From Eledone cirrhosa (taxonomy: Eukaryota), in the NCBI GenBank assembly GCA_964016885.1, contig OZ024740.1, positions 71,362,001 through 71,426,000 on the forward strand: a stretch of 64,000 nucleotides of DNA, given 5' to 3'. The notes beneath the pieces are model-generated. The model was given only the letters and a program-made list of their open reading frames with translations, had not been told where the DNA came from and did no database searches. The position numbers and the translations under genes are program-made. Position 1 is the stretch's first letter. Every line of letters starts with the position of its first letter. Of the stretch, positions 571 to 59,792 are shown in pieces.

Positions 571-2611
571 AAATTTAAGTGAAGGGTACAGTCATAGATG
601 TCTATAATTAAGTCAACTGCTCCATGTACCATCATCATTGTATAATGTTCTGCTAGCAAGAGTGTGACAGTATATTATGCAGCTTCATTCCACTGGGAAT
701 TCTTGGCACTTTACAACTATCAACAATTCTTATAAATAATTAAGTGTGTTTGTGGTGTGCACATGAATATATATATGCACATACTATATTTTTATATACA
801 TTATTTAAAGATTCTGATAAGATAAGAAAATATACCTAATGACTTTTATGACATTTAAAGAGTCTGCTAATTATGTGTTTATAAAGAATGTTGGTACTAA
901 TGGTGTCAGTGTACTTTATGAAAAAATACAATGAACCTTCTCTTCTACCACCACCACCACCACTATCTGCCAAATCTAAGTGAAAAGGTTCTACTTTTAG
1001 CCAGAATAACCAGTAATAGCTGGCAAAATTTGAAATAATTGGCAGTAACTTAATGAACTAGATGTAAATAATATATATAATGCAAAAGTGGGAGACAATG
1101 TAATGAGATCGCATTGATGAAGAATGGCTTTGATCAATAAATAATTTATGATTGTGCTAAGAGAATTATTCTTATCGTTATAAGGAAACACAAGTGTCAC
1201 ATGACAACCCACTTTCAGCTAACTTTGACAGGGAAATGGTAATATCTTCCTCCCTACTTAGCTTTCTATCTCACAGTATTGTCAGTGGTTAACTGCTGCT
1301 TTCTTTAGCTACCTCTCATAGGACAATAAAAACATCTATCTACCTACCTACCCACCTTTCTACCTGTCTGACATATGTATCTATTTTTAGACAATAGCAA
1401 TAACAAAAACAAATCACAAATCCCAATAACAGCCGGAAGAAAAATAGATAGATAGATCAAAATCATTATAATGTAGTGCATATGTTTGTTAATGATTAAA
1501 CAAAATATGGAAGGAAACTATTGCAATTGATTTAAATATGGCAATGGTCGGAATAACAAGGCCAAGGAAAATCAATGATTCAAGCATCTTTAAATAGAAT
1601 GTTGTAATGTAATCAAGGAATTATTGAATTAAATATTTTTTACAATAAACCCATTCATTTTTGGTAGGGATTATGCTGGTTATACAATAAATGATGAATA
1701 TAATAATTTTAGATTGCTAGGTGGCAGGATGAGAGAAAAAATAAAGCACCAGACTATATAACTTTCAATGGTTAGTTCAGTCCCTATACAATATGAAGTG
1801 TGTGGGGGGTATGAGCATTAACTCTTAATGCCCTGTACAGTATGAAATCGCATTAGCAAAATATTCTTAAAAAGTATAAAATAGCACTATGACTGAATAT
1901 TACAATACTGTTAATTTTCACAATGATCTGTCCACTAATAAAGAAACTATACTGTAAATATTTGAGTTAACTCTTCTCTGCACACCTATTCCTGAAAGGG
2001 TTGTGTGAGCAGAGTCATGCCTTCCAGAAGCAACCGTCTCCAAATGATCTGGCTGGATCTCTAAGACCAGCCAAGCTTATGAATGTTAGTTATCCAACTA
2101 TGTTACTTGTGGTTTACTTCTGGGCCTCCTGCCAGTCGGCTTTGCCCATAAAATCTGTCCAGCGATTTTTTCTTTAGACATTCTAACCACATATCCGTAG
2201 TACCAGCTCTCCATGGAATGACACCCTGATATCTGAGCTATACACCCTATCAAGTAATAATTCTTGAATAAATAGTCTTGTTTTAAGATATTTTCTGCTG
2301 AATCATGATATGAAAATATAGATGAAGTGGTTCCAAAGGATCATAGGCTTATCCTATCAAGAACTTGGGGAGGAAATAGTCAATTATATTAACCTCAGTA
2401 CCAACTTGGTGTTTATTTTATCACATGATGAAGTTTAAAATGAACAGAAATATTCAACATGGAAATATTCATAATACAAAACACATCACATCAAAGAGTG
2501 GGAAAGTACATGATTTAATGTAACAATAAAAATTTCATTACATGAATGTTATTTACAATGAATATAAAATCTTTCCAGTTTAGGTACGACGGGAAGGAAC
2601 AGTTTTCAAAA

Positions 2612-2664
2612 CTATAGGTACAAGCTGGCTGCAAACACAATGTCTCTCTTTATTTTTCTGATAC
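2612..2664 (-). CDS. MTREX: MTR4 exon 26 coding part ([16 protein letters not shown])
   Basis: Conserved SLYL C-terminus and TAG. Confidence 0.96.
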
Positions 2665-5600
2665 CTGGAAAGAAAGAATAAATAAATTTGGTTATAATAA
2701 AATATCTCAACTTTTCTACTGGTTCCAGCCAGTGGACTATCAAACTAGGACATTACTCTTTTAAAAAAATTATTCACAAAGTCATCGACTCATATTTAAC
2801 ACTTTCCAAAGTCTCTAATTTTGTAAAATTTTATAAAGATATTTTAAGTACAGGTTGATAATGGCTATCAGAAGTAATGATCACAATTTTCGAAAAAGGA
2901 ATACAAGAAAGATTGCTCTAATTATAGAGGAATCTCCTTGTTAAGCTTCCCCAATAAAGTTTATGCTAAGTGTCTGGCAAAGAGATGTAGAGATATTGTC
3001 CAAGATAGCTGATGAAAAGTGTGGTTTTTGTCTCGGATGAGTACAGCCATCTATATATTCATTCTGTAGCAGGTCTTCGAAAAATTTTGGGAGTATTGCC
3101 AAGCAGTATATGCTAATCCTCAACATCAAGAGATCATGACTCCAGTATTATGGATATGTAATTAGAATACCTATGGAATGGATTGCAGATTTTATAGGTA
3201 AACTTAACCAGCAAGAGGCCCAAAGGTTATCAGCAAAATGGTTGGATAAACATCTATAAGCTAAGTTGCCTTTCGCTTGGGATCCAGCCAGATCATTTGG
3301 ACACTTTGGAAGGTGTGTCTGAGGACTCTGCTCACACAACCCTCTGAAGAAGAAGACAAAAACAAAGAAGAAGCAGAAGAAATAATAGGACCCCCACACA
3401 CACACTCAATCAATAGTCTTGACAATTTTACTATACCTTCTGAAAATTTATTTTCAAGTTCTGTATTTCCTATAGCTTTTGAAGCTTGACACATTTGTCT
3501 CAACATTTCCTCTAGTCGTCGCATGATCCTTATAACACTCCCTGTTAAAATAATATTAAACCATGTTACAAATTTAGTAGATGGAATATAACAACACTGG
3601 TAGGGAGTAATCCTCATTAAGTTATAAGAACACAACAGAAATCATAATTAAAGAGAAGAAACAGTTCTATACAAAGTTTTCCAAGATACATAGCAAAATG
3701 GCCTTGTGGATTTGGCATTGGAGGAGCAGCAGTTCATAGTCTTAAGTTTAAAACCACAATAGGTACTGTTGTGTACTGGGGCAGTACAATTAACCCTTTG
3801 AACTCTGACTATGCTATGTGCACAGGCCCCAAACCTAGACGTCACTAGAAAAAATTAAATGTACAAACTTGGTAAATATCATGGCAATACCTGCTTGATG
3901 AGCTCATATAAAAGCAATGATGTAAAACAATCACTGATCATGCAGAAAATAGTGAAAAATCAGTTGTAAATACAAGTGTGTGGCAGAATGAGCTGGTAAG
4001 ACATTGTCAAACATTATCAAGACTAGTAGAAAACCGAGCCAGTAGGTTCAGTTCACTTAAATGGTGGAAACCGTTTCTATGCCCTATCAGAGAAAAAAAT
4101 CTTGTCTTTCTTCTGTTTTATGTCAAATTCTAATTAAGCACTGGCTCTTAAAAACTATGTGAGTCTTAGGAAACAGTATTGGCTCTTAAAAGCTATATGA
4201 GGTTTAGGAAACATCTTGTATTGAACAAACCATTCAGCTGTAAATAAACATCAAGTTGAGACACACCTGACTGCTCTATTGGAATACTGTAAACCAATCA
4301 GTTTTGTTAGCTTACAGTTTTAAGTTCAAAGCCTCTAATGGACAACTGAAGAAGGAACAGATCTTTATTACATTCCCCAACAAGAGAGCATCAACATGAT
4401 TTCTCAAATTGCTAGAAATAGCAGTAATATCTTCCTCAAATTAAACTTTACTGTTTTAAACAAAGATGGAAACAAGAAAATTCGGTGTTAGACGCACCTG
4501 AAAAGGCAAGATGGTTGTAACTGGAATACTTTTGACCACTTAACTGTTTAATCAGACCCAGGGCTAAATAAAAACAACCACTATCCACCAATATATATCT
4601 CTTTTATTAGCTCTGATTAAATTACTCATCTACCCAGTTTAGAATAGGTACACCGTATCTCTGCATGTCATAAGAAGCAACTAAAAGAGTTTGCCCAAGA
4701 ACAGCATCTAGCCTTAAAACAATGCCCCAAAAAGGACCTCCTTTTCCTAACCTTTGCTAGCAGAGGAAATGGACATTTGATAATAATTATGATGACTAAT
4801 AGCAACAGCATTCAAGCGAGTCAATGGCTATAAACATCTCCTTTGTAATATTAATACCATATCTTTAAAATAAGAGTAATGATTTATATTTTCAAACAAG
4901 GATTATCAAAGAAAAATTAAAAACAACTTTAGGACAAGCTATTTTATACCTTCAAATATATCAGTCATTTTACAAATTTGTGCAAATTCAGCACCATTGC
5001 ACCAAGCATTCACAACATCCATCATGTGGGGTTTGAAAGAATCAACATAACTTTCTTCGTCCATCTCTATCTTGGCTTCTTTGCTCACCCGTGCAATTCT
5101 TCTTGCAGTATCCTGTAAAATAAACAGACAATTCTAATAGGAAACTTCTGGGTAAACATAATTCTTTCAAACATTGGATCAAGGCCAACAATTTGAAGGA
5201 AGAGGAAATTCAATTATATTAACCTCAGTACTTAACTGGTACTTTACATTTCATCTATTTGAGGTTGATGAATAAAGTTGAGCTTGGTGGAATTTGATCT
5301 CAGAACAGAAAGTTGTATCTAAATGCCAAGAGGCATTTTGTCTGACACTCTACAGATACTGCAAATCCACAAATAAAGGAGACTTGGAAATAACAAACTA
5401 AAGCAGTAACAAATACAGAGTAGAGGGGGACTCTTCAGTTTGGTCAGTTAAACCATCCTAGAGCCAGTGGTATAAAATACACCCAGTTCATGCTGTAAAG
5501 TGGTTGGCAATCAGAAAAGCATGCAGCTGTGAAAAGATATGGCATATACAACAGTTTTTTCTCTCTCACTGAATGTTTCAGATGATCAAAAACTAGTGCT

Positions 5601-20600: not shown

Positions 20601-23600
20601 ACTTTCATAAGCCATGTTGATACAAAAAAAAAATTTGTTGTACTTTCAAAGTTAAAAAAACACTTGTAGTTTTAAGTTGTTTCACTATATTAAGTGTTAA
20701 TTTTCGCGGTAAGGGCCTAATCTCGCAGTAATCTTGAATTGACGAGATTTTGATGATGGTTTGTTTATTTTTAGAACAATTTTTTAGTGTGGGTGTTATT
20801 GGGCGATTTGAACACTAAAAGGTTAAATCACCAAAACTAAAGAAGTGTTACTGTTACTTCATTGAAGTTTAACTTTAAACTTTCTTATGTCACTTGTTGA
20901 ACTCACAATGCTGTTTATCTTTTCATTGCAATGTCTAACTATATTAGAAACAAATAACTTTCTGTTTGATATTTGCTATTCCTTGGTTCTTGATTTTTGG
21001 GTGCTATTTCTAGCGTCATTACAGACCTGATATATTGTCTTGGTGACCTTCATGACCTGGTCAACTAACTTAATGCCTCTATAGTTTTCTCTACCTAGAG
21101 CGTCTCCTTTGCCTTTGTAGCAGTTAACGATGCTGCTGCTATGACAGTCATTTGGTATGACCCCATTCTGTATTACTTGGTTTACTATCTGGGTGACTAC
21201 AGTATGTCCCACCATTCCAGAAGCTTTCAACATCTCAGCAACTATCTCTGAAGGCCCAGCTGCCTTGCCTGTCTTCATATCTGTGATTGGCTTACTTACT
21301 ATACTACCATTAACTTGCTTGTAATAGTAATAATATACACAAACAGCAAAATGTAAATGAACCAAGTGAGAAATTAGGAATAAGAGGGATCAGATGCAGT
21401 TTACTAGAGGGGAAATTACGTTGGTATAGTCATGTGATATGTATGAAGGATCACAGCTGTATAAAAAAGTGCAGGGCGATCAAAATTGCTGGAAGCTACG
21501 GAGGAGGTAGACCCAGAAAAACCTGGGATGAGGTGATAAAAACTGACCTTGCACACTTGTACCTCTCTAAAACAATGTCACTAGATCGAGATCTTTGGTG
21601 CTATGCAGTAATACAGAAGACCCACCTTCCCTTACGTACGAACTTAAACCTAGTCAGTAGGCACCTCTTAACCCAATATTCACCTTACACCCCACCCTTT
21701 CTCTGTAAAGTTATTGGTACCACAGAACATCCAGCCCACACTAAAGTGGTCGTGTAGGTGTCACGACAAAAAGCACCCAGCAGTCCACACTGTAAAGTGG
21801 TTGTGTAGGAGACACAGTAAAAAGCACCCAGCACGCACTGTAAATGTGGTTGGCGCTAGGAAGGGCATCCAGCCGTAGAAAACCAGCCAGAAACACTTCT
21901 ATACGAGCGAGACAAGGTCACTCGACCCAACTTGCTCAAGTGGGAGAAACCCGTCTAACCCATGCTAGCGTGGAAGATGGACATTAAACAATGATGATGA
22001 TATAATTTAGTAGCCAAATAACACAAATGTTGAATGCACCATGGTGTTTCGACAGTCTGTATGTTATCAATTGAATATTTTCTCTAATTCCAAAGAATTT
22101 CCCCTGATGACAATATTGTCTTGGTTTATTGAGATAACTGGTATTATTTCATAATTCCAAAAACTGCAGTTGGGGACCTTGTGTGTGTGAAACTGACTTA
22201 CTTAGTTTGTCTAACTATAACCAGATGTATTGTTAAACTATAGGTCACACTATAACCACACATATTGTTAACCAGGTAATACTAGGTGTCATACCAAAAG
22301 ATTGGTGCAGTAGCATCATTGTCAACTGCTACAAAGGTAAAGGTGATGCACTAGATAGAGGAAACTATAGAGGTATAAAGCTGATGGACCAGGTCATGAA
22401 AGTAACAGAAAGAGTTATAGCACAGTTGATTAGGGACCGGGTGAAACTAGATGAGATGCAATTTGAGTTTGTACCAGGAAGAGGCACCACTGATGCCCTC
22501 TTCCTTGTGAGGCAGTTACAGAAAAAGTACCTAGCTAAAAGTAAGCCACTCTACCTGGCATTCGTCGATCTCGAGAAAGCCTTTGACAGAGTTCCACGTG
22601 CTGTAATCTGGTGGGCTCTTAGAAAACCAGGAGTAGATGAATGGCTTGTGAAAGCTGTACAAGCCATGTATAGGGGAGCAGTCAGCAAAGTTAGGATTAG
22701 CAATGAGTATAGCGAGGAATTTAGCGTACAGGTTGGTGTCCACCAGGGCTCTGTTCTTAGCCCTCTCCTGTTCATCATAGTCCTGCAGGCAATAACGGAG
22801 GAGTTTAAGACTTGATGCCCATGGGAACTCCTGTATGCTGATGACCTCGCACTTATAGCTGAATCTATGGTAGAACTAGAGAAGAAATTCCAAACTTGGA
22901 AGCAGGGACTAGAAAGAAAGGGTCTCAAAGTCAACATGACAAAGACTAAGGTCCTTGTAAGTAGACGGGAAAACAGAACCCAGATGCCCCTGGGGAAATG
23001 GCCTTGCTCAGTTTGTAAGGAAAGGTGTAGGTAGGAACTCCATTCTCTGCCCCAAATGCAAACAATGGGTACACAAGAGATGTAGCAGGATCTCAGGAAG
23101 CTTAATTAAGAATGTTGGCTTCACATGTGCTGGGACAGCAAGCAGCAAACAGCCACAGGAAACAAGTACCACCAATCTCTGGGAGGGCTCTGTAGAAACA
23201 GTAGACAGCTTCTGCTACCTAGGTGACCGAATTAGCAGCGGAGGTGGGTGTTCAGAAAGTACAATAACTAGGGTAAGAACGGGATGGAAGAAGTTCAGGG
23301 AACTACTGCCACTGCTAGCTGCAAAAGGCTTCTCCCTCAAAATGAAAGGCAGACTGTATGATGCGTGTATCCGAACACCAATGTTACATGGTAGCGAGAC
23401 CTGGGCCCTGAAGGTGGAAGACTTACGTAGATTAGAAAGAAACGAAGCCTGCATGCTCCGATGGATGTGTAATAGTAATATACGCGAATGACAAAGCATA
23501 AATAAATTGAGAGAGAGACAGCATAAGAGGAATCAAATGCTGTGTGCAGGAGAGGCGGTTGCGTTGGTATGGACATGTGATGCGTATGAAGGATGACAGC

Positions 23601-29600: not shown

Positions 29601-32600
29601 AAAGTCAACCTGACAAAGACTATGGTCCTAGAATGTAGAAGGGAAATGGCCTTGCTCAGTGTGTAGGAAAGGTGTAAGTAGAAATTCCATCCACTGTCCT
29701 AAATGCAAAGTATGAGTACACAAGAGATGTAGTGGGATCTCAGGTAATTTAGCTAAGAACATAGGTTGTACATGTAGCCGTTGCACTGGAGCAGTAAGTA
29801 GCAAATAACCACAGGAAACAAGCTCTATCAAATTCTGGGAAGGTTCGGTAAAAGTGGTAGACAGTTTCTGCTACGTAGGAGACAAAATTAGCAGTTAAGG
29901 TGGGTTTTCTGAATGTACAGTAACCAGAGTGAGGACAGGGTGGAAGAAGTTCAGGGAGCTACTACCATTGCTAGCTACAAAAGGTTTTCCCCTCAAAATG
30001 AAAGGCAGACTGTACAACGTATGTATACGAGCAGCAATGTAGCATGGTAGTGAGACCTGGGTGTTGTGTGCAGAGGACTTACGAAGATTGGAAAGAAATG
30101 AAGCTTGCATGATTAGATGGATGTGCAATAGTAATAAATGTGAACAGCAAAGCATAAATGAACTGAGAGAGAAACTAGACATAAGAGGAATCATATGCAG
30201 TGTGCAGAAGAGGAGATTGCATTGGTATAGACATGTGACGTGTATGAAAGATGACAGCTGTATAAAAAGATGCAAAGTGCTCAAAGTTCATGGAAACCAT
30301 GGAGTAGGAAGACCCAGGAAGACTTGGGATGAGGTTATAAAAGCTAACCTTGCACCTCTCAAAGGCAATGACACAGGACCGGGATCTCTGGCGTTATGCA
30401 GTAATACAGAAGACCTACCTTCCCACGAGTACAGGCTGAAGCATACATCTTGTATGCACCACCTTCACCACCCCTCAACACACCTGCCACGTCCTAACAC
30501 ACAGCCATATACTCACCTCCTTAATCCCACCAAAACCCCTAGCCTACACTATAAAGTGGTCGTGATAGCAACAAGACAAAAAGCGCCCAGCCCACACTAT
30601 AAGGTGGTCGTGTAGGTGTCTTGAGAAAAAGCACCCTGTACTCACTGTAAATGTGGTTGGCGTTAGGAAAGGCACTCAGCCATAGAAACCAAGCCAAAAT
30701 CAGTTCTGTATGAGCAAGTCATGGTCATCTCACCTCGACTTGCATCAAATAGGATAACCCATCTAACCCATTTCAGTTAAATAAAAACGTGTTGCCTTTT
30801 AAATTTTAAAATACAATCATAATAGAAATATACTTACAGTCTCATCTACAACTAAATGAATCCCATCTCCACCAGCTGGAAAGATGTAATGTTGCAATGG
30901 AGTTGGGCGATTATCAGTGTAAACAACATGGCATGGCTGTAAAAATGATAAAAAATACAAATTATTTCTCTACTCAAACACTACGAAAAATTGTTGAGAA
31001 GAGTTTGAAATGCTACTTTTACTTCTTCATTTTGATTTCGTTATCCCCTTTTGTATAAAACTTTACTCTGCAAGAATTAAGTATGCTTCAGTTATAATAG
31101 ATTAATTAATCTGGAATAAAATAAGATGAAATAGTTGTTGAAGATCAACTCCATTCACATTTGTATGCTAAGTTCTTGGAATAATTGGTCTGAAAACAGA
31201 AGATCAACTATTTGATAAAAAATACAATTGCTAATACAAGCAGTCAAAATGAGGGTCCTTTGAAGTAACATTGTTTGATAGGATATAATTCAAAACATTT
31301 TCAATAAGAATTACCAACTTATCAACTTAACAAGTAATATCAAATGTTCTTAAAATGAATTCAGTATTGAAGTTCTAATAAGTACATTTATATTAATTTA
31401 TCTATACATATAACCTCTGACAACTTTCAATATCAAATACTTTAAAGATTCTTCACATACCTGGTTGTGAAGATGACATATCCACTCAGCAAACTGACGT
31501 GCATTAGGGATAGTGGCTGACAGAAATACATAGTGTACATTATCAGGCAAGAGGATAATAGTTTCTTCCCAAACAACACCTCGTTCTGTATAAAAATAAA
31601 AAGAACTTAATAGTAAGATAGTTATTTATTAATCAATTTAAATGTTCATGTAATGCTGGTAAGGTAAGGCAGCCTGAGAAAGGTATCTAATATCCCTTAT
31701 AAATTAAGAAATAATTGTTTCTACTTTAGGCACAAGGCCAGCAATTACCCAGTGCAGAGAGGCAAAAGAAATAAGAATCAGGAAAAGGTGAAAAATAGGG
31801 ACAGATATAGAGCAGTTAAATGTTTCTGTAGATGGTTCTTTTTATAGCCTCCATGTATTGGAAGACCTTATTTATGGTAGGTATATCTTTGACAGTATAT
31901 TGCACTACCAACCTTAGTAGTTTTTTTAAGAGCAGTTTTAAAATGTCCTCTCTCTCAAACTGGAAGTTTCAACATTGCTATGAGTGAATTTGATAGATGG
32001 TCATTTCAGGAAGACTCATGCATGTGAGTGTGTGTGTATCGTTTCATCATTTTTATATTGACTTTTCCATGCTGGCAAGGGTTGGATAGGACTGTTTTAA
32101 AGCTCTTCCTGACATCAAACCTTTTAGTCACAGGGATACAGTATACCTATTCTTAACCTGATACACACATGTCTATATATATATATGTGTGTCATATTGA
32201 CAAAAGTTAGCAGTACATATACCAAGCTTTGACTAAAGTATGGGTTGGTGGTAGGAAGAGCATCCAACCATAGAAAATCTGCACTCAAAAAAGTCTTATT
32301 ACAATTCACACAAGCATTGAAAAAGAAAAAAAAATGGATGTAAAAGTAATGATGGTACAATGTAGTGAAAGATGGGATGATACTCTCTTCAGTTCTCTAA
32401 TGATTACCATAACTATTAACCCCTTAGCATTTAAACAGGCTGTATCCAGCCAGAATTCTCTTACCTCTTTCTGTTCAAACCAGCTTCTCATACTTATGTT
32501 AAGATATTGTTCTCAAAATAAATAATATCAAAATCTCATAGATTCGATATTATGTGAGATATAATGTTTACAGTGAAAATACAATAGTATATACAGAGTA

Positions 32601-43238: not shown

Positions 43239-43603
43239 GGCATACGTCAAGACGGGCGGTCTCAAAAGTGAAACTAATTTTTGATATATATGTGGGGGTG
43301 TATATGTGTGTGTGTATGTATATATATATGTGTTTGTGTCATCATCATCGTTTAACGTCTATCTTCCACGCAAGTATGGGTTTAGACGTATATATATGTT
43401 TGTGTGTATATATGTGTTTGTGTGTATATATATGTGTGTTTGTGTGTATATATATGTGTCTGTATATATATATGTGTGTATGTATATATATATTTATGCA
43501 CACATACACATTTGTATGAATTTGTAGATGTAAATTCACAATCCAAATTGAAAGTAATCACTTACGTAACTTTCAAAAATTAGTTTCACTTTTGACGTAT
43601 GCC
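43239..43603. mobile_element. MITE-like inverted-repeat element containing microsatellite
   Basis: GGCATACGTCAA[+15]AAGTGAAACTAATTTTTGA at 43239-43284 versus its reverse complement at 43573-43603. Confidence 0.55.
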
Positions 43604-43705
43604 CAAATATAAATGTTTATAACTAATTTAGAGTACTCAACAATTTACTGGAGTAAATATTCAATGATATTAAATAAATGGAAACTATATTTATAAAACC
43701 ATATT

Positions 43706-43768
43706 TATTTTATTATATATATTTCAAGGGTACCAAGACACATTGATACGCTTTCATCAGATAAAATA
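43706..43768 (-). ncRNA. Minimal type I hammerhead ribozyme
   Basis: TATTTTAT-CTGATGA-AAGCGTATCAA...TTGGTACCCTT-GAAA-TATATA-TA-ATAAAATA. Confidence 0.82.
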
Positions 43769-43812
43769 CAAAGTTTGTTTTATAAATAGAGACATACCCA
43801 TGAAATCATACC

Positions 43813-43871
43813 TTATCGGATGAAAGCGTATCAATGTGTCTTGGTACCCTTGAAATATATATAATAAAATA
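43813..43871 (+). ncRNA. Hammerhead copy with mutated core and shortened stem I (probably inactive)
   Basis: CGGATGA at 43817 in place of CTGATGA; otherwise the inverted copy of 43706-43768. Confidence 0.6.
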
Positions 43872-44098
43872 AATATGGTTTTATAAATATATTTCCATTT
43901 ATTTAATATCATTATATATATAACTTTGCCTTTCATCCTTACGGGGTCGATAACATAAAGTACCAGTAATGCACTGGTTATTTGCTGGCCTTGTGCCTAA
44001 CGTAGAAACAATTATATATATATACATTCATATGTATGTACGTATGTATGTGTATATATATATATACATACATATATACATTCATATGCACGTATGTA

Positions 44099-44410: not shown

Positions 44411-44472
44411 ATTATATTTTGTCTGATGAGGACGTACTGTTGTACATCCGAAATATGTATAATAAAATGTAA
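44411..44472 (+). ncRNA. Minimal type I hammerhead ribozyme
   Basis: ATTATATTTTGT-CTGATGA-GGACGTAC tgtt GTACATCC-GAAA-TATGTA-TA-ATAAAATGTAAT. Confidence 0.82.
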
Positions 44473-44504
44473 TTGATCAAAAGAACATCTATTTTATTAA
44501 TACT

Positions 44505-44586
<82 letters not shown>

Positions 44587-44623
44587 ATTAAATAAATGGA
44601 AACTATATTTATAAAACCATATT

Positions 44624-44689
44624 TATTTCGTTATATATATTTCAGGGATATCATATTAACAATATGTTATGCCTTCTTCAGACAAAATA
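44624..44689 (-). ncRNA. Minimal hammerhead ribozyme in the left inverted arm
   Basis: Reverse complement of 47203-47268. Confidence 0.75.
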
Positions 44690-45111
44690 CAATATAAACA
44701 GTCTAAATAAATAGATACGACATACCTTTCAATCACCTTGCATTTGGGAGGTTGATTTGGCAGTAAAAAATATTGTGGACAGTTGTAAAAAGAAAGATAG
44801 AAAGAAAGAAAGAAAGAGAAACGAAGAAAAAGAAGAAATGCATGTGACTAAATAGAGAGATATAGAAAGATAGATAAAGAGAAGAACTTCATGTAAAGAA
44901 ACAGAGAGAAATATATATAGAGAGAGGAAAAAAAAGAAAGAGATAGATAGAGATAGATAGAGAAACTAGGAAGTTGAGTATCGGTTGATACATTTATTTA
45001 TTTATTTATTTATTTATTTAGCTCTAGTATTAATGTAAAGATAGATGTATGTAGTTAAGAGAGAAAATAGCCGTTATATAGAGAGAAAAAAGAGAAAATG
45101 AAAAAGAGAAA

Positions 45112-45860
45112 ATGAAAAACAACCTTAACAACTATAATAGAAAGCATTACAATAATTCCAAAAGCCATAAAAGAAATAGAACTAGGAATATAATATGGTT
45201 TGCCCCCCCCCCCCTTTCTCACTAAACATTAAAACCCACATTGCTAAACTATTTTTTAAAGCTCTCGATAATCGCTTCCCTAGAACACATAGGTATCACT
45301 CAATTTTCAATAGACATACTATAAAACTAACCTACTCATCCACCAAAAATTTAGCGCAAAATATTAATAGAATAAATAACAGGAACTTAAAACCTAGCGA
45401 CAATAGCATAAATAATATCCAAGTTAACAAATGTAACTGTAGAGATAGATCTAAATGTCCTTTAAATAACAACTGCTTAGTTAAAAATATAATATACAAC
45501 TGTAATGTTAAAACGGACGTTAATTCTTTTAACTACGTTGGTTCTACATCGCCAGAATTTAAACTTCGCTATAACAACCACAAGAATTCTTTCACAGATC
45601 CATCCAAAAAATCTTCAACAGCACTATCAGGCGTACTCTGGCAACTTAGGCATGATAACGTTAGATATTCGACGACTTGGAATATAGTTTCAAGGGGGAT
45701 TCCTTTTAATTCATCCTCTGAGACATGTGACCTCTGTGCGGAGGAGATATTCTTTATACTAAAATCTAAAAATTCCCTTAATCTACGGACAAATTTATTC
45801 AGTTGCTGCAGACATAGATTGAACTCAACGTTTAAATATAAATTTAAATTTAAAATGTAG
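45112..45860 (+). pseudogene. Penelope-type GIY-YIG endonuclease with Cys-rich linker; one frameshift in a C12 run
   Basis: RNIIWFAPP/FS...CNCRDRSKCPLNNNC, IIY...YVG, FKLRYNNH, STALS, CDLCAEE, LN, CRH. Confidence 0.85.
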
Positions 45861-45921
45861 TTATGTTTGATTTGATTTGTAATTATTTATGAAACTAGCC
45901 GATAAATCTTTCGATTTCTTC

Positions 45922-45989
45922 TTTTTATTAAAACATTCTTTTTATTAAAACATTCTTTTTATTAAAACATTCTTTTTATTAAAACATTC
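45922..45989. repeat. 17-bp tandem repeat, four copies
   Basis: (TTTTTATTAAAACATTC)4. Confidence 0.9.
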
Positions 45990-47202
45990 TTCATGAATAA
46001 TTAAACTACCCTAAAAGCTGATGCTCCAAATATATAGAATTAAATTTTACACTAGATAAACTTCTATATTAAATATAAGAACATATATAGACCAAATGGG
46101 TATCCTAAACTTTTGGAATGATTTCTGCTAGACAGGATTTGGTAAACAATTTTTGTTTTATCTGTTTCGACTCTGATGATTATGATGAACTTGGCAATAT
46201 ATTGTCAATTAACTTTGAAAGGCTGATCTCTGTGGCCGATTTGCGTGGCATACTAGGTTTATTTTTATTATTTTTTAATATTTTGTAATATTTTTTATTT
46301 TTAATATTAAATGTTTTAGTTTTCTGTTTATTTATTTATTTTCTTGTCTCTGATATTTTTATTTTTTATTTTTATTTATTTTTATTTTTATTTTTATTAA
46401 TATAGTGAAATCTGTTCTCTATTTCTGCTTGATCGACAATCATGTAGAGTAAAGACAAGAATAGTATTGTTAAAATTAATATAGACTCTATATATATGTG
46501 TATATATACACACATATATGTATGCTTGAATTTTTATAGCACAATGAGAATGTTTTCGTGTGAATTGGGAGTTTGTTTATAATTATGATATAAACATATG
46601 AATTTTTAAAAACTAGACATAAGATCATTACTTTTCACACATTATAGATACATGTCTCATTCATGAATACTGATATTTACATTATAATGCCTGTTTTATA
46701 CGAACTAATATTTTCTACGGGATAAAACATAGCGTTTTTAAATCCTGCCTCGTTTATGTCTGGTTATTTTTCATTTTCTCTTTTTCATTTTCTCTTTTCT
46801 CTCTCTATATAACGGCTATTTTCTCTCTTAACTACATACATCTCTCTTTACATTAATACTAGAGCTAAATAAATAAATAAATAAATAAATAAATGTATCA
46901 ACCGATACTCAACTTCCTAGTTTCTCTATCTATCTCTATCTATCTCTTTCTTTTTTTCCTCTCTCTATATATAATTCTCTCTGTTTCTTTACATGAAGTT
47001 CTTCTCTTTATCTATCTTTCTATATCTCTCTATTTAGTCACATGCATTTCTTCTTTTTCTTCTTTTCTCTTTCTTTCTTTCTTTCTTTCTATCTTTCTTT
47101 TTACAACTGTCCACAATATTTTTTACTGCCAAATCAACCTCCCAAATGCAAGGTGATTGAAAGGTATGTCGTATCTATTTATTTATAAGACTGTTTATAT
47201 TG

Positions 47203-47268
47203 TATTTTGTCTGAAGAAGGCATAACATATTGTTAATATGATATCCCTGAAATATATATAACGAAATA
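47203..47268 (+). ncRNA. Minimal type I hammerhead ribozyme, sense to and downstream of the GIY-YIG ORF
   Basis: TATTTTGT-CTGAAGA-AGG...CCT-GAAA-TATATA-TA-ACGAAATA. Confidence 0.78.
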
Positions 47269-47394
47269 AATATGGTTTTATAAATATAGTTTCCATTTAT
47301 TTAATATCATAAATATACTCCAAATACTTGTTGAGTGCTTTTATATCAGTTATAAATATTTACTCGTTGTTAACCCAACAATTTAAATATAACT

Positions 47395-47455
<61 letters not shown>

Positions 47456-47483
47456 AACAAAAGATGGTTAAAAGAGTTCCATG

Positions 47484-47554
47484 TATTTTATTATGCGCAT
47501 TTCAAAAACAAATATCATCATGCAATAATATTTGTGTTTTCATCAGATAAAACA
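47484..47554 (-). ncRNA. Minimal type I hammerhead ribozyme
   Basis: TGTTTTAT-CTGATGA-AAACACAAATATTAT...ATGATATTTGTTTTT-GAAA-TGCGCA-TA-ATAAAATA. Confidence 0.8.
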
Positions 47555-48363
47555 TGAAGACATGATATGAAGGTTAAAAAACACTTGTGGATAGTTCAGT
47601 TTTAAATCAACATATGAGAAGTAGTTTTAGATTGATGCGTGATATTGGGAAAAATATTTTATTTAGAGGGGGGGGGTGGAAAGGATGAAAAAGAGGAGGA
47701 GATGAGAGTAAAAAGTGGAGAGGGAGGAGTATAATGAGGAAGGATGAGATAGGAGGAGAGATGGGTGATAGATAGAGAGAGATAGCTTTTATAACTGAGA
47801 AAGATATATTGTTTTACATAGAGAGGTTGAAAACCGTTGGAAGATAATGAATAAATTAAAAGAATTTGAAAATTAACGAAGAGAAAAATAATGTAAAGTT
47901 AAGGTTTGTATATTGAGGGGTTTGATAATATGTGCGATGAAAAAAGAAAATGTTAATATGTATTGAGAATAATGTTTAAGGGTTTAATAATATGTGCGAT
48001 GTTAAGTAAGGAAATATTGTGAGATGAATGAGTTAGATGAAAGGGAGAAAAGAATAATGAATTGAGGATGAATAATCTAACGTCAAAAAAATGTATATGT
48101 TTACGAAGGATTTTTACAAGGTGATATAGAGTAAGAATGTATTGTATTATGTAATAATTGATTCTATGTTAGGCAAGAGTGAGAAAAGGTACAGATTAGG
48201 GGTTAGACATTAAAAGAAGAAGAGAAGAATGATTAACAAGTATTATAGAATGTATAATAACCTTTGAAATAAGGTAGAAAGATGGGTATATTTTTAAAAG
48301 AAGTGTATATATATATATATGTGCCTTTGAGAAAAAGATTCTAAATTGATAAAGAATTGAATA

Positions 48364-48909
48364 TTAGCTGTATACTTTGTGAAATGTTTTATGGAATTTA
48401 TGCAAGCAGATAGAAAACAAGTCAGTGCGTCTATTTATTATAGAATCTAAATTAGAAATAATGGTAAATTTTTCATTTAGGCAGAGATTGCAAATTTTGG
48501 ATAGAGAACTGTTCAAGTCTGAAGACGCAGAAGAAACCTTCTTCCAAAAGATGCTATATTTAATATTTTTGTCTTTCAAGGACCATATGAGTTCTGAGAG
48601 AGCCGTGTTGGTTCTTTTAAGTTTGTATTTAAAAGGCGAATGATGGTTATAAAGACGAGCTTTAAAAGAGGTGGAAGTGGAGCCAAAATAGGTGAAGGAA
48701 TTGGTGTCAGTTATAACTTTACATTCGTAAATTAAGTTTTTATCAAGACAATGGTTGTTGAGAGGACATTTATTTTTAATAGGGCAATTGCAATTGCGAT
48801 TAGAGAGATTATTAATGAGTGACCTAGTGTTATCTATAGAAGGAATTGGATTGGAGAAGTTATTTGCGATAGGAATAATAGTTTCTTGATTTAGAATGGG
48901 ATTAAGAAC

Positions 48910-48910
<1 letters not shown>
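48364..48910 (-). pseudogene. GIY-YIG endonuclease frame, stop-free but lacking a start
   Basis: CNCPIKNKCPLNNHC, LIY...YFG, FKARLYNH, TALS, CNLCLNEK, IN, CLH. Confidence 0.85.
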
Positions 48911-48944
<34 letters not shown>

Positions 48945-49682
48945 TCCCCTCTTCCGACCAATCTCTTCACGGATTACACATATGTGAACCTTGATCCCGA
49001 GAATCTACCGCATCCCAGGATTTTACTCAGCATTCCACCACATCTTTTTACGGAATTACCTTTACGACTCACCCCAGACACACACCCTCCAATTTTTTTT
49101 TCCCACACGCCACCTACATCCACAACACGCATAAACACCACACACACACACGTGCGTACCACCACATATTTACACACTCAGCCTCTGGAATCCTCTCCCC
49201 CACCCCTCTATCCACACACGCACACACACTCCGACCTACACCCCACCCCACACACACCTCTTCCTGAACATGCAACCCCGTTCTTCCCCCAACCCTTGCT
49301 TTCACATACACACACACACGTACACCTACACACACACACCACCTTCAGCCCTCCCCGCTCGGACACCCCGTCTCCCTCTCCCCACTCCACCCGCCACCAC
49401 CCCTACACGCCCCACATCTTCCACCACCTGTTTTACCCCATTTTAATTTTATTTTGATCATGCCTTTATTTTTAATTTCATTTGCACGGTTTCCTCTCAC
49501 CCCCTTTTTGCTATATGTCTCTCCACCACTCCCCTACACACCCTTTGAACTCTCTTTCCATACACTTTTCACCACAAGGGCTTATGCCCGAAACGTCGTT
49601 CCCCACCACCACCCCACTCTCAAGAGCGTGAAATTAATAAACCTTTGTTCGTACTGCCTCTGTTTTGTTCCCGTTCAATTTT

Positions 49683-49763
<81 letters not shown>

Positions 49764-49769
<6 letters not shown>

Positions 49770-50102
49770 ATGCTTTGGGAGGGTCATGTTGCCAATAAGA
49801 AACACATGCACCAGTTGCTTTCACTCCAATTTATTATAAATTAAATTCATAAATTTAAGAATTTATAAATTTCCGGTTGGCTGGTTGGTTCCACAACCGG
49901 ACGGTTGTTCATATATTGTCAAAGTTCTTTCGTCACACATTCTGTGACCTCTTCAGTGACTAGGGATTCTTTCCTTTGTTTTTGTGCCTCTCCTTTATTC
50001 TGTCCTCTTAAATTTATAAATTTAATTTATAATAAATTGGAGTGAAATCAACTGGTGCGTGTGTTTCTTATTGGCAACATGACCCTCCCAAAGCATAACA
50101 AT
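49764..50102 (-). mobile_element. Fold-back element with 97-bp inverted arms and an internal hammerhead-like motif
   Basis: 49764-49860 versus 50006-50102; related copy at about 52733-52852. Confidence 0.7.
49918..49960 (-). ncRNA. Hammerhead-like motif (atypical)
   Basis: GTCA-CTGAAGA-g-GTCACA gaatg TGTGAC-GAAA-GAAC-TT-TGAC; extra G and very short stems I and III. Confidence 0.5.
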
Positions 50103-50245
50103 ATCGGTTTCAACACACGTTTTCAGATAAAGAATCTTGCTAAACAAATTCAGAAACGAAATATATATATATACATTCATATGTACGTATGTATGTATAT
50201 ACATACATATATATACATATATGTATATATATACATATATATATG

Positions 50246-50278
<33 letters not shown>

Positions 50279-50390
50279 TTATATAATATATATTTATATA
50301 ATATATATATATATATTTATATAATATATATATATATTTATATAATATTAATTAAAAATATTAATAAATATAGACATTGACGTAATCAAA

Positions 50391-50462
50391 ATATATTTTA
50401 TTATATATATTTCGGAGGTACTGTGCTGTTTTTTTAGTGCGTCATCATCAGATAAAATATAT
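50391..50462 (-). ncRNA. Minimal hammerhead ribozyme with decayed stem II
   Basis: ATATATTTTAT-CTGATGA-...-GAAA-TATATA-TA-ATAAAATATAT. Confidence 0.62.
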
Positions 50463-51488: not shown

Positions 51489-52100
51489 TATGGATGTGAA
51501 AAACGTTCGCAAGTAGTGTAGAGAGTTTACAGCCGGTCGTACTGAAATTCACGATGAACAAAAGAGCGGGAGACCGTCAATTTATGATGAGACAGTCGCA
51601 AAGGTTGAGGAAAACATGCGTAAAGATCGGCGGGTCACTCTGGATGCTCTCTGCATTTTGGTTCCTGAGGTTTCCCGAAGCACCTTCCAAAAAAAAATTG
51701 CGACTCTCTCGTCGGAAATCGACGGTCTCCCGTTCTTTTGTTCGTCGTGAATTTCAGTATGACCGGCTGTAAACTCTCTACACCACTTGCGAACGTTTTT
51801 GACATCCATGCACGACTGTCCTTACACTTCCGTCAATTGGTGATGAATTGCAATCGGTTCAACGCCTTTTGTGTTCAAAAACCGAATAACTGCGCGAGCT
51901 TCGCACTTGGCGGTAGCGTTCAACGGGATCTCCATTCTCAACGGTTGCGAAGATAAGATTGAGCATCCCAGTGAAGCGCGCGCATGCATGCTTGTTTGGG
52001 AGCGAAGGAAACACCAATCACAACAGTGTTGCCAACAGCCGTACGAACAATTTCTCTGCGTCCCCATCGCTTTGGAGACCTTACTTTTGGGATTACGCTC

Positions 52101-52101
<1 letters not shown>
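51489..52101 (-). mobile_element. mariner transposon 5' fragment with internal inverted duplication
   Basis: TA-CGAGCGTAATCCCAAAAGTAAGGT terminus; HTH N-terminus RAVIRFL...IHHQL...VRKWCREF...GRPS. Confidence 0.82.
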
Positions 52102-52164
<63 letters not shown>

Positions 52165-52182
52165 TCATATGTACGTATGTAT

Positions 52183-52715
52183 GTGTACAGGGCCGTTGTT
52201 CTCACCAGCCTCCTCTACGGATGTGAGACATGGACCCTGTACAGAAGGCACCTGAAGCAGCTGGAACGGTACCACGTGCGCAGCCTACGGTCAACCATGA
52301 ACATCAAATGGCGGGACAAAGTCTCCAATCTCGTAGTTCTTGACATGGCTGAGACAACCAGTGTCGAAGCTATGATACTGAAGAGCCGACTTCAATGGGT
52401 GGGACGTGTCAACCGGATGGACGATCATAGGCTTCCGAAGCAACTGATGTATGGGGAACTCTGTTCGGCAAAACGAAAGTGGGGCAGGCCTCTCAAGAGG
52501 TTCAAAGACTGCGTGAAGTCCGGCATCAACAACACTGGAATCGCCCCAAAACAACTCGAGTCCCATGCTCAGGACAGGACTGAGTGGCGAGCCCTTACCA
52601 GACGCCAAAGACTCTTTTGAAGAGAAGAGATGGGCAGAGGTCACTGAGGCCCGTGAAAGGAGGAGAAAGGCATCAGCAGCTGCCTCAAGCGACTCCGGTC
52701 TCTTCCCCTGCCCCA
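52183..52715 (+). mobile_element. RTE/BovB-like LINE 3' fragment
   Basis: YRAVVLTSLLYGCETWTLY, RLPKQLMYGEL, GRPLKRFKD. Confidence 0.85.
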
Positions 52716-52854
52716 TTATCCCCGGACCTGCGATATATAAACGACCTTCCAGTTATCGAACCAACCAGCCGGAGATTTATAATAAATTGAAGTGAAAACT
52801 AACAGGTGCGTGTGTTTTTATTCGCAGCTTGACCCTCCCAAAGTATAACAACAC

Positions 52855-53762
52855 GTCATTATCATCATCGTCTAACGTCCATCTTCCACGCTAGCATGGG
52901 TTGGGCGGGTTTGTCCCATTTGAGGCAAGATTGGTCGGATGACCGTGTATCGCTTGTACAGAACAATTTCAGGCCAGTTTTCTACGGCTGGATGCACTTC
53001 GTAACACCAACCACATCTACAGTGTGGACTGGGAGCCTTTTTACTGTGTCTTCCACACAACCACTTTACAGTATGGGTTGGGTGCTTTTTGTCGTGTCAC
53101 CTATACGACCACTTTACAGTGGACAGAGGTGGGAGGGTGGAGTAGGGATGTGAGATGGGGGCGTATATTGAGTTAAGAGGTGACTACTGACTGTACGTTT
53201 AAGTTCGTATGTAAGGGAAGGCGGGTTTTCTGTATAACTGCATAGCGCCAAAGATCTCGATCCAGGAACGTTGTCTTAGAGAGTGTAAGTGAGCAAGATC
53301 AGTTTTATCACCTCGTCCCAGGTTTTTCTCGGTCTACCCACTCCGTAGCTTCCACCAATTGTGATCGCCCTGCACTTTTTTGTACAGCTGTTGTCCTTCA
53401 TACGCATCACATGTCCATACCAACACAATCTCCTCTCCTGCACACAACATATGATACCTCTTATGCTTAGTCTCTCTCTCAATTCGTTTATGCTTTGCCG
53501 TTCGCATACATTACTATTACACATCCATCGGAGCATGCAAGCTCCGTTTCTTTCTAATCTACGCAAGTCTTCTGCACACAACGCCCAGGTCTCACTACCA
53601 TGTAACATTGCTGTTCGTATACAAGCATCATACAATCTGCTTTTCATTTTTAGAGAAAAACCTTTTGTGGCCACCACTGGTATTAGCTCTCTGAACGTTT
53701 TCCATCCCGTTCTAACTCTGGCTACTGTACTTTCAGAACATCCACCTCCACTGCTGATTTTG
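52855..53762 (-). mobile_element. RTE-type LINE 3' fragment (family of 22260-24063)
   Basis: MLHGSETW...RLCWYGHVMR...[10 protein letters not shown], (GAT)n tail. Confidence 0.9.
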
Positions 53763-54335
53763 GAACTCAGCTGGACAGCAACTCCTTGCGCATCGATGTT
53801 TCTCTGAGGCTCAGCCACAGCGTCTATGAACCTCACTTGCTGCTGTGGTACCATTGTGGTTCCTTTCGGTCTCCACCCACTGTCATACCGTTACAGTGCT
53901 GGCTGCTTCCCACGTTATGCTGCTCTCAACGAGATCATAAAGTATGGCCTGGACGACGCAGGCTTCCCTTCCCAGCTCGAACCAGAGGGGTCAGCAAAAG
54001 GCAAAACGTTATGACAATCTTCTCAATTGGATGCTACATGCTGTGACACCTACTCTAGTGGCAACTTGGTGCATTCGGCTACCAGCCCAGGCTCTGCTGC
54101 CCGTCAAACCAAAAAGGACAAACTGTCCAAGTATCAGCTGCTCTCTGATAGAGCCTGTAGCAAAGGATATTTCCGGCGTTCTTGGCCCCCGGACCAGATC
54201 CATACTCGTTGTTATCTTGGCGGAGCTGGCCGCACGTAGATATGAGCCCCGCGACATGGAGTGGCTGTTACAGCGCGTCTCCCTCACCGACTTCTGGGGC
54301 AATGTATTCTCCATCCTGTCGACTGGGACCCAGTG
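53763..54335 (+). mobile_element. CRE-like non-LTR element, zinc-knuckle and RLE C-terminal fragment
   Basis: Across frames: LRIDVSLRL...CCCG...GLHPLS..SAG..PRYAALNEII...LEP, WDATCCDT, KLSKY, WLLQRVSL...GNVFSIL. Confidence 0.68.
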
Positions 54336-57979: not shown

Positions 57980-59792
57980 CCACAACTGGTGCAGCCAGTT
58001 GTTGGGATACCACTCTTGACGCTTTTGCAATCAGTTGTTGCCAATGGTCTCTATTCCTCGTCATGCGTAGAAGGGTCTCAGTGTTGTAACCAGTCCACTC
58101 TTTGATGTTGTAGGACCAGGATTTTCTTTGTCTGCTTCTTCACCCTCCTTCGACTGTGCCCTGAAGTATGGTTTTGGAAAAGGAGCTGTGGCAGGATGCA
58201 TGACTATACCAGGCAAGCTTCCGTCTTTTCACTATCGCAAGGAGTGGTTCCTGTCTGCCAAGATATTTGTTAACTTGGTGCCTCACAAAGCTGTTTGTTT
58301 TGTCCTCTGTGTATTGGATGTATAGCATTCTTCTGAAGCACTTGTGCTCAAATGACTGGATTCTTCATTCCATGTCAGCTATGAGAGTCCAACTCTCACA
58401 CCTATGCAAAAGGATCGAAGTCACCAAGGACTTGTACAGTTTGAGCTTCGTTGGAAAACTGATGGAGTTGCCTCTCCATATGACATTCAGCTTTACCATG
58501 GCAGAAGTAACCAGGGCGAGACTTGTCAGTATCTCCTTTTCAGATATGCCATCTTTGATCAGAGTGGATCTTGGGTACTTGAAAGTGTCCACTTCTTGAA
58601 GTCTTCCTCCATTCAGTATGATGTTGTTTACTGTATAATGATTATTACTGTTAACCAGAATCTTGCTCTTTTCTGAGTTGATTTCCATTCCATATGCTCC
58701 TGATCCTTTTTTCAGTCTGGAAGTGAGCTCCTGGAGTTCTGCTTCATTGCTTCCTAACAGTTCAGTGTCATCAGCAAATCACAGGTTAGAAATGGGCCAT
58801 CCTCCAATGGAAACTGAGGTGTGGAAGTCGTGGAGAGTCTCTTGCATGATGTTTTCCAGGAAGATGTTGAAAAGCACTGGAGAAAAGAGGCACCTTTATC
58901 AAACTCTTACTGTTGTCTAGAAGAATTTTCCAGTGTTGTCATTCAGAACTGCACTGTTTGGGTTGTAATACAGTGCTTTAATTACTTGAATGAGGTCGAT
59001 GTCAAAGTTGTAATCTTTCAACTTCCACAAAGCCTTATGCCAAACACAGCCAAAGGCTTTTTAAAAGTCAAAGTTATGATAGAGGTCAGATTGGTGCTGC
59101 AGGTGTTTCTCAGTGAGCAGTCTGATGTTAAATATCTGCTCTGATGTACTTCTTTTGAGCCTGCCAGGATTTCTTCTGCTTTTCCCTTATTTCTGTTTAG
59201 AAGACTTCTTAGCAATACTTTGCTGGAGTGGTTAATTAGGCTGATTGTTCTGTAATTCTGGCAAAGTCTTCAGTTTCCTTTTTTGGGAATGGGTATCCTC
59301 AGTGATTGGGTCCATGCCTTTAGCCTCTTCTTTGTTTCTCATATCTTCTGACAGATAACTGATAGTGCCTTAATGAGTTTTGGCCCTCCATATTTTAGAT
59401 CTGATGGAAAGTTATCAACTCCAGGGAATTTACCATCTTTATACATGTGCACCGTCTCTGACTTCCTCATGGAGGATAGGAGTATCCTCAATTTCATTGT
59501 TCTTATTGGTGGAATTGTCCAGGATGTTGATATTCTGTCTGATTTTGTAGTTATAAAGGTCTTCACAATATTCAGATCATCTTTTGATGGGCCTCGTCTA
59601 TGATGCCCATGAAAAAACTCGTCTCCAGTTTTGTCTTCAATAGCAGTGGTAGTGTGTTGCTTTCTTTTTGTTAACATTTTGAGGATTTCATAAGCAGCCT
59701 TACTGTTGCCCTTTTTTTATTCCAGCTTCGATGTTTTCGTACTGGTCTGATATACACTTTTCTTTGGCTTCCCACATTTTCTTCCTGACCTT
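57980..59792 (-). mobile_element. Decayed non-LTR LINE (RTE-like, third family) RT region and 3' end
   Basis: GKFPGVD, LKLYKSLVTSILL..CESWTL, VKRRKLAWYSH, KTILQGTVEG; many frameshifts. Confidence 0.85.

Follow-up and report, generated by a model that had tools for sequence, protein, structure and literature searches.

In twin priming by L1 elements, the second target strand primes a second cDNA, and end joining yields a 5′ inversion; the inversion arises without duplication, and priming occurs at variable sites. For Penelope-like elements (PLEs), an inverted 5′ copy and a tail that is often one-sided have already been published, and the origin of these tandem and inverted structures and one-sided tails is named there as an open question (PMC8557442). 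The same source describes the Hydra clade as PLEs with a C-terminal endonuclease (EN+), mostly shorter than 3 kb (Craig, Yushenova, Rodriguez, and Arkhipova 2021), and its supplement includes an octopus member, Hydra-1_Obim, and Penelope-13_HM, a Repbase entry that has a 5′-truncated inverted copy and a hammerhead on each strand. Minimal type I hammerheads are carried by metazoan PLEs, and a circular RNA template has already been proposed (PMC4209133). In vitro, the Poseidon element PAc of Anolis starts reverse transcription at two internal sites that bound the tail, both strands of an AT-rich target are cut and extended, and a dimer is predicted; initiation was reported to be nonhomologous to the cut DNA, and hammerhead cleavage was not needed (Frangieh et al. 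2024; PMC11167929).

The unit studied here occupies positions 44581 to 47398 of the window (the whole 64,000-nt stretch of DNA analyzed) and sits between two (TA)n runs. It is 2,818 bp long, which corrects the 2.7 kb given in a preliminary description of this DNA. That description's near-identical inverted arms of about 545 bp were recovered: by BLAST, 44575 to 45124 and 47317 to 46762 share 97.5% identity over 557 columns, and within their exact limits, 44581 to 45124 (543 nt) and 47311 to 46762 (550 nt), they differ by 5 substitutions and 3 small indels. On the right side, 87 nt (47312 to 47398) are additional and absent from the left arm. No reverse transcriptase (RT) sequence was found in 44581 to 47398, as had been reported. 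The features of the locus are as follows.

44505 to 44581, no strand: (TA)n target, left flank.
44581 to 45124, minus strand: inverted 5′ arm, a second and shorter copy of the element's 3′ end, without the 87-nt tail; its outer end is the short site (site B).
44618 to 44696, minus strand: minimal type I hammerhead motif of the arm, with its core from 44681 and cleavage predicted after 44632.
45112 to 45114, plus strand: fortuitous ATG from the antisense 3′ untranslated region (UTR) of the arm, not a parental start.
45119 to 45124, no strand: junction of arm and body, unique in the genome, with an imperfect 6-nt overlap in which 5 of 6 letters fit both sides.
45119 to 47398, plus strand: 5′-truncated body, parental positions 1525 to 3741 (linker end, nuclease, 3′ UTR, hammerhead, and tail).
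45195 to 45860, plus strand: GIY-YIG nuclease part of the parental open reading frame (ORF) with the CxCX5C linker, open from the internal ATG at 45195 (221 aa) by the phase of the C-run alone.
45203 to 45214, plus strand: C12 run.
47196 to 47274, plus strand: type I minimal hammerhead motif of the right side, core 47211 to 47217 and 47249 to 47252, predicted cut after 47260.
47309 to 47317, plus strand: short end (site B), an AT-alternating patch at which tail-less ends stop.
47312 to 47398, plus strand: 87-nt tail, with the long end (site A) at 47398.
47317 to 47339, plus strand: copy B of the stem-loop motif, which consists of RCUC, an inner stem, a 2-nt bulge, GAGY, and RCU.
47399 to 47452, no strand: (TA)n target, right flank.

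Relatives of the unit were collected by searching the 3.0-Gb genome of the same species with the nuclease as the query, and the best 150 of 70,671 candidates were scored. All 150 of these best matches had 97 to 100% amino acid identity, with open frames of 218 to 761 aa, and 9 of the first 20 stretches fetched started with the complete ORF. Full-length relatives with an RT, the search for which the preliminary description had proposed, thus exist. A natural copy, L035, defines the parent as a 3,741-nt unit with a 1.4-kb 3′ UTR and one 737-aa ORF containing both RT and GIY-YIG nuclease. The window body is 94% identical to L035, and the window arm corresponds to parental positions 3658 to 3118, inverted. 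Matches were fetched for 145 of the 150; after one duplicate view (L157) was dropped and palindromes with two ORFs were counted once, 140 insertions, the window copy included, made up the first family as sampled from the best 150 matches. A neighboring family, 41% identical in amino acid sequence over the nuclease part, served as a replication set (3,709-nt unit; 808-aa open frame in L261), for which 60 stretches were drawn from the best 150 matches, 58 in rank order and 2 picked for long frames.

Pfam returned no families for both window nucleases and the full ORF, and a sequence search of the PDB gave no significant match; the RT was assigned from its motifs, its homologues, and the predicted fold. 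Thirty homologues at 31 to 42% identity align across the RT and nuclease motifs, the best (P0001) being a hypothetical protein of Argonauta hians with 39% identity across 98%, and a predicted model of the parental protein (pLDDT of 81) has telomerase RT as its best fold match (E value of 2.6e-9). The IIY/YVG, R, H, E, and N motifs are conserved in the parents, and the window copy lost its RT by truncation. DKT replaces DKG (KSDKTNNLY), a Hydra-clade trait; the N-terminal motif is RWR in this family and RWK or RWR in the homologues; the window frame retains the CxCX5C linker as CNCRDRSKC; CCHH is absent inside the nuclease, which has one Cys between IIY and YVG; and CDLC before E700 and CRH after N712 supply the CxxC and CxH beside E and N. 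The insertions show the architecture known from PLEs, namely, 5′ truncation, partial tandems, an inverted 5′ copy, and a one-sided tail, and (TA)n was present at 127 of 131 right flanks and 91 of 95 left flanks. The units of both families (3,741 and 3,709 nt) exceed the clade's size of <3 kb, which is a descriptive figure. By its motifs, the element is a Hydra-clade PLE; the comparison with the published alignment was made by eye.

The preliminary description had offered two readings of the unit, a one-off truncated Penelope insertion, which stood, and a self-contained nuclease-plus-ribozyme element mobilized in trans as a unit, which did not. The proposed search for the junction, with a 35-nt pattern and at most 1 mismatch over the whole genome assembly, gave 1 match, the window itself. 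Upstream of the junction the parents run on into the RT, the 5′ ends of the 140 copies are scattered over positions 1 to 1631, and other family copies are cut and inverted at scattered points. Reads and contigs from four runs, which stem from other individuals or from a relative and so do not bear on the window copy, follow either the parent or the arm, with no listed one crossing the junction. The signs of an EN-only unit or a retrozyme were likewise absent: the junction is not repeated elsewhere in the genome, and the arms are inverted rather than in head-to-tail tandem. Two outward hammerheads and an intact nuclease frame, in which ATG 45195 opens 221 aa with C12, speak for a self-contained element, as do the stand-alone GIY-YIG ORFs reported with Terminons. 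That reading nevertheless fails, because the junction is unique, the relatives are near identical, full parents exist, and the breakpoints are scattered; together with the frameshift described below, these findings make it extremely improbable. The window copy is almost certainly a unique 5′-truncated copy of a young and abundant Hydra-clade PLE; it lacks an RT and is probably without function.

The coding part bears on the same question. A stop-to-stop frame at 45186 to 45860 (224 aa) contains the IIY/YVG, R, H, E, N, and Cys motifs. The preliminary description placed an ATG at 45112 in frame with the linker; the ATG, its translation (MKNNL...RNIIWFAPPPLSH-stop), and the C12 run are all there, but the ATG derives from antisense 3′ UTR. 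It noted that 13 or 10 C would give a stand-alone nuclease of about 249 aa but overlooked that, with C12, the ATG at 45195 is already in the nuclease frame (221 aa). The run as a frameshift was borne out in the assembled sequence: the parental run is C7, which leaves the C12 assembled in the window out of frame with the linker. When C-run length was read across 151 runs of the family, it was 7 in 76 and 8 to 22 in 68 (range, 6 to 22), and it differed within the stretch in 10 of the 12 stretches holding two, while neighboring A6 and T6 runs were fixed in 140/140 copies. Short reads (other individuals or a relative) also varied, with lengths of 7, 8, 10, and 11, so the variation is not solely a long-read artifact; RT stutter or later slippage may have expanded the run. 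Among the 75 runs with lengths other than 7, the three phases occurred 29, 27, and 19 times, and the phase that opens the internal ATG was not enriched, which argues against a self-contained element and led us to reject selection for a stand-alone nuclease via C-run phase. The pN/pS ratio of the nuclease was 0.18 for variants common to at least 5 copies and 0.53 for singletons (133 of 140 copies; P = 0.02). Purifying selection is thus strongest in shared variants, the pattern expected of selected RT+EN source copies and decaying insertions.

The outward-facing hammerheads, one per arm in the preliminary description, were confirmed as motifs, and folding recovered their stems I and II. The cores (CUGAAGA...GAAA) lie at 47211 on the plus strand and 44681 on the minus strand, both facing outward, and stem III is short and palindromic. 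Because the two motifs lie on opposite strands, a single transcript has just one in sense. Searches of Rfam at the gathering threshold and at an E value of ≤10 matched neither window hammerhead and returned microsatellite noise only, and fold stability showed no gain over shuffled sequences (z = −0.69). Six related motifs within the window keep the core with differing stem II sequences and have 8/8 stem I pairs. It is on the core motif and these six relatives that the call is based, and we treat the motifs as putative ribozymes.

Arms are a general property of the family. An outermost inverted arm was present in 102 of the 140 copies. The 3′ ends cluster at two fixed positions separated by 87 nt, the long site (A) and the short site (B). 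In 15 arm-bearing copies one end lay elsewhere, and the 2-by-2 table excludes these. Among the 87 copies with both ends at the two sites, the outer ends differed in 86 (45.8 expected if independent; Fisher P = 3e-23): 33 had a long arm and a short body, 53 had the reverse, 1 was short/short, and none was long/long. The 38 armless copies comprised 17 long, 18 short, and 3 other ends. The second family behaved in the same way. Arms were present in 43 copies, 6 of which were left out for an end at neither site, and the outer ends differed in 36 of the 37 that could be scored (P = 3e-8), or in 35 of 36 when two likely duplicates were considered. Concordant ends were found in two copies across both families, L045 and L259.

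Long near-identical inverted repeats within repeat-rich DNA could be read as an assembly artifact or as the terminal inverted repeats of a DNA transposon, and we give hardly any credence to either. The window arms differ by the substitutions and indels given above, their asymmetry is typical of the family, arm lengths range from 55 to over 3,000 nt, and the coding part is the C terminus of an RT ORF. A DNA transposon, with fixed symmetric termini and a transposase, was rejected given the asymmetric ends, variable arm lengths, and retroelement ORF.

At the arm/body junctions of the 102 arms, 16 showed an overlap of 1 to 4 nt, 5 were blunt, 29 had gaps, and 52 were unscored. L049, L151, L128, and L251 (family 2) are near-perfect multikilobase palindromes whose two cDNAs have nearly coincident stop points, and L063, L071, L079, L085, L146, and L170 carry 5′ internal inversions or deletions, besides or replacing the terminal arm.

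Arm and body of one insertion are close kin. An arm differs from its own body by a median of 0.3% and from other bodies by 3.1% (73 arms; own body jointly nearest in 47). Of 179 inherited minor variants, 143 are common to an arm and its own body, versus 11 expected. Such sharing could also reflect later gene conversion or a pair of RNAs from a single source locus. As an instance of same-template arms the window copy is weak: its arm and body are 0.9% apart, 12 of the 132 other copies lie closer, and 0 of 1 minor variant is shared.

The paired ends also bear on an alternative in which the arm forms by fold-back of a single cDNA and the tail is trimmed from one end by the element's nuclease; "EN-mediated resolution" has been suggested (PMC8557442). 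The arm lies wholly within the body in 53 of the 86 first-family cases, the window copy among them, as fold-back would allow; short internal inversions occur (e.g., L071, L085, and L146); and cleavage by the Drosophila virilis nuclease reportedly depends on the tail (cited in PMC11167929). In the remaining 33 of 86 cases, and in 26 of 36 in the second family, however, the tail is on the arm and not on the body. Neither copy then contains the other, so neither templated the other, and fold-back of one cDNA cannot produce these cases. Tail limits are, moreover, RT start sites in vitro (PMC11167929), and, as described below, a stem-loop follows both sites, not one. We therefore regard fold-back as improbable. 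The reading that we prefer, in which the window copy is a truncated Hydra-clade element whose arm is a second, shorter copy of its 3′ end, likely made in the same insertion by priming from both ends of one cut, is very probably correct.

Each end site is closely followed by one copy of a bulged stem-loop motif that occurs twice per unit and nowhere else in the unit of either family. Motif copy A lies just beyond the long end, in the 5′ UTR of the next unit, and is missing from the window insertion. Distances from the hammerhead cut are +56 and +146/147 in one family and +52 and +142 in the other. The stretches that follow sites A and B resemble each other, with a score of 41 (best of 634 control windows, 27); the two copies of family 2 align with a weak pairwise score of 17 and are linked by pattern, not by sequence identity. 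The motif follows 157 of 184 hammerheads that have enough unique downstream sequence (0.15 in shuffles), most of which come from the same two families and are not independent. In 15 distinct instances, 97.7% of cells were paired and 3 of 6 pairs had double changes; 0/500 shuffles scored as high, although the relatedness of the instances means that this control yields no probability. Inspection by eye of published Hydra families from other phyla showed this motif twice upstream of the Hydra-1_Ajap start codon and also after the hammerheads of Hydra-2_Ajap and Hydra-2_Amil. Both start sites overlap AU-alternating patches, which could pair with a (TA)n primer. That the stem-loops act as RT signals is slightly better than an even proposition.

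Two-site twin priming would account for these ends, and we consider it probable. The protein of an intact copy would cut both strands of a (TA)n repeat; the two DNA ends would prime at different sites, one at A and one at B, on the AU-alternating patches by the stem-loops, which likely recruit one RT each. Both cDNAs would stop at random points, and the joining of their 3′ ends would produce head-to-head arms with a tail on exactly one side. For the window copy, the A-primed cDNA would have reached 2.2 kb and stopped before the RT, and the B-primed cDNA would have reached 0.54 kb. Since most arms overlap the body template far beyond 87 nt, priming on one RNA requires strand displacement. Priming at the hammerhead cut, considered for L100 and L133, was not borne out, as a finer walk placed both ends at 3629.

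Motif A spans the unit junction, which makes a circular or tandem RNA likely, perhaps one made by the hammerhead. Of 110 exact long ends, 24 carry the first 4 nt of the next unit. Copies that end at site A with a span of >2.1 kb number 75 of 140, against a range of 135 to 2111 nt for the 23 5′ partial tandems measured. These counts favor a circular or tandem template, although unsampled tandem sources or read-through RNA may also account for them. A circle in particular is a plausible choice that we rate at somewhat less than even.

Alternatively, both ends may prime either on two separate RNAs or on read-through RNA that terminates in (AU)n, with no circle involved; the stem-loops would then have another role (promoter, translation, or packaging). 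The motifs lie in the 5′ UTR, where promoter and translation signals are expected; read-through RNA would pair with the target, given that long ends border on (TA)n; and hammerhead cleavage is dispensable in vitro for a Poseidon element (PMC11167929). On its own, however, this scheme leaves the absence of long/long copies among 87 unexplained, and the next-unit letters and long spans at site A described above also count against it. We consider it unlikely, if less so than fold-back. The full form of the two-site proposal is that, in Hydra-clade elements, two stem-loops about 90 nt apart, each with one RT, force the cut ends onto different sites of the same, probably circular, RNA; to this we assign an even chance.

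Other insertions surround the unit. A truncated copy of the second, Hydra-type family (47454 to 48966, minus strand) shares one (TA)n run with the studied copy, the two lying tail to tail. At about 43600 to 43910 is an older head-to-head pair of 3′ ends from a related family, in which the minus-strand end has the tail and stem-loop (43632 to 43654) whereas the plus-strand end reaches only the short site and its hammerhead core is mutated. Two further 3′ stubs with hammerheads, from other families, lie beside (TA)n at 44413 to 44506 (plus strand) and 50224 to 50461 (minus strand). In this region, insertions are nested within the TA runs of one another. It also contains a 99-bp inverted pair, 97% alike and 145 nt apart (49762 to 50104), and broken RT frames at 20976 to 23491, 30043 to 30615, 51847 to 53890, and 58365 to 58778, which we take to resemble ordinary LINE fragments.

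The window locus itself carries minor weight, being one of many truncated copies; it is the family pattern that bears on the origin of tandem and inverted PLE structures and one-sided tails (PMC8557442). A tail described as often one-sided becomes a near-strict rule in two families, and both arms are tied to one source allele. If true, one rule covers inverted arm, one-sided tail, and hammerhead, and the duplicated RNA motif and the intact 737-aa parents offer handles for tests of mechanism in vitro. In the literature consulted, older reviews and several supplements aside, neither a paired-end rule backed by counts nor arms from the same allele nor a duplicated stem-loop was found stated.

Compared with L1, the present family duplicates the 3′ end, and both of its sites are fixed. 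Like PAc, it has a tail bounded by two sites and an AT-rich target; PAc, however, belongs to another clade, and its start sites lie inside the ORF at an AC-rich stem-loop and lack target homology. In that study, no strand bias of the start sites was seen and no connection to inverted arms is made (PMC11167929). The hammerheads resemble those of PLEs and retrozymes in having a short palindromic helix III and in lying within a terminal repeat, whereas animal retrozymes are noncoding head-to-tail tandems and the hammerheads of the window copy are on opposite strands (PMC4209133; bioRxiv 10.64898/2026.07.22.740005). With the Hydra clade the family shares a single RT+EN ORF, DKT, CxCX5C, no CCHH, CxxC and CxH around E and N, a hammerhead, and a (TA)n target; it differs in its 3.74-kb unit with a 1.4-kb 3′ UTR (published members are mostly <3 kb), in RWR for RWK, and in a tail of 87 nt versus 30 to 40 nt (PMC8557442). 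The anatomy of Penelope-13_HM, as given in the supplement, is the same as that of the window copy.
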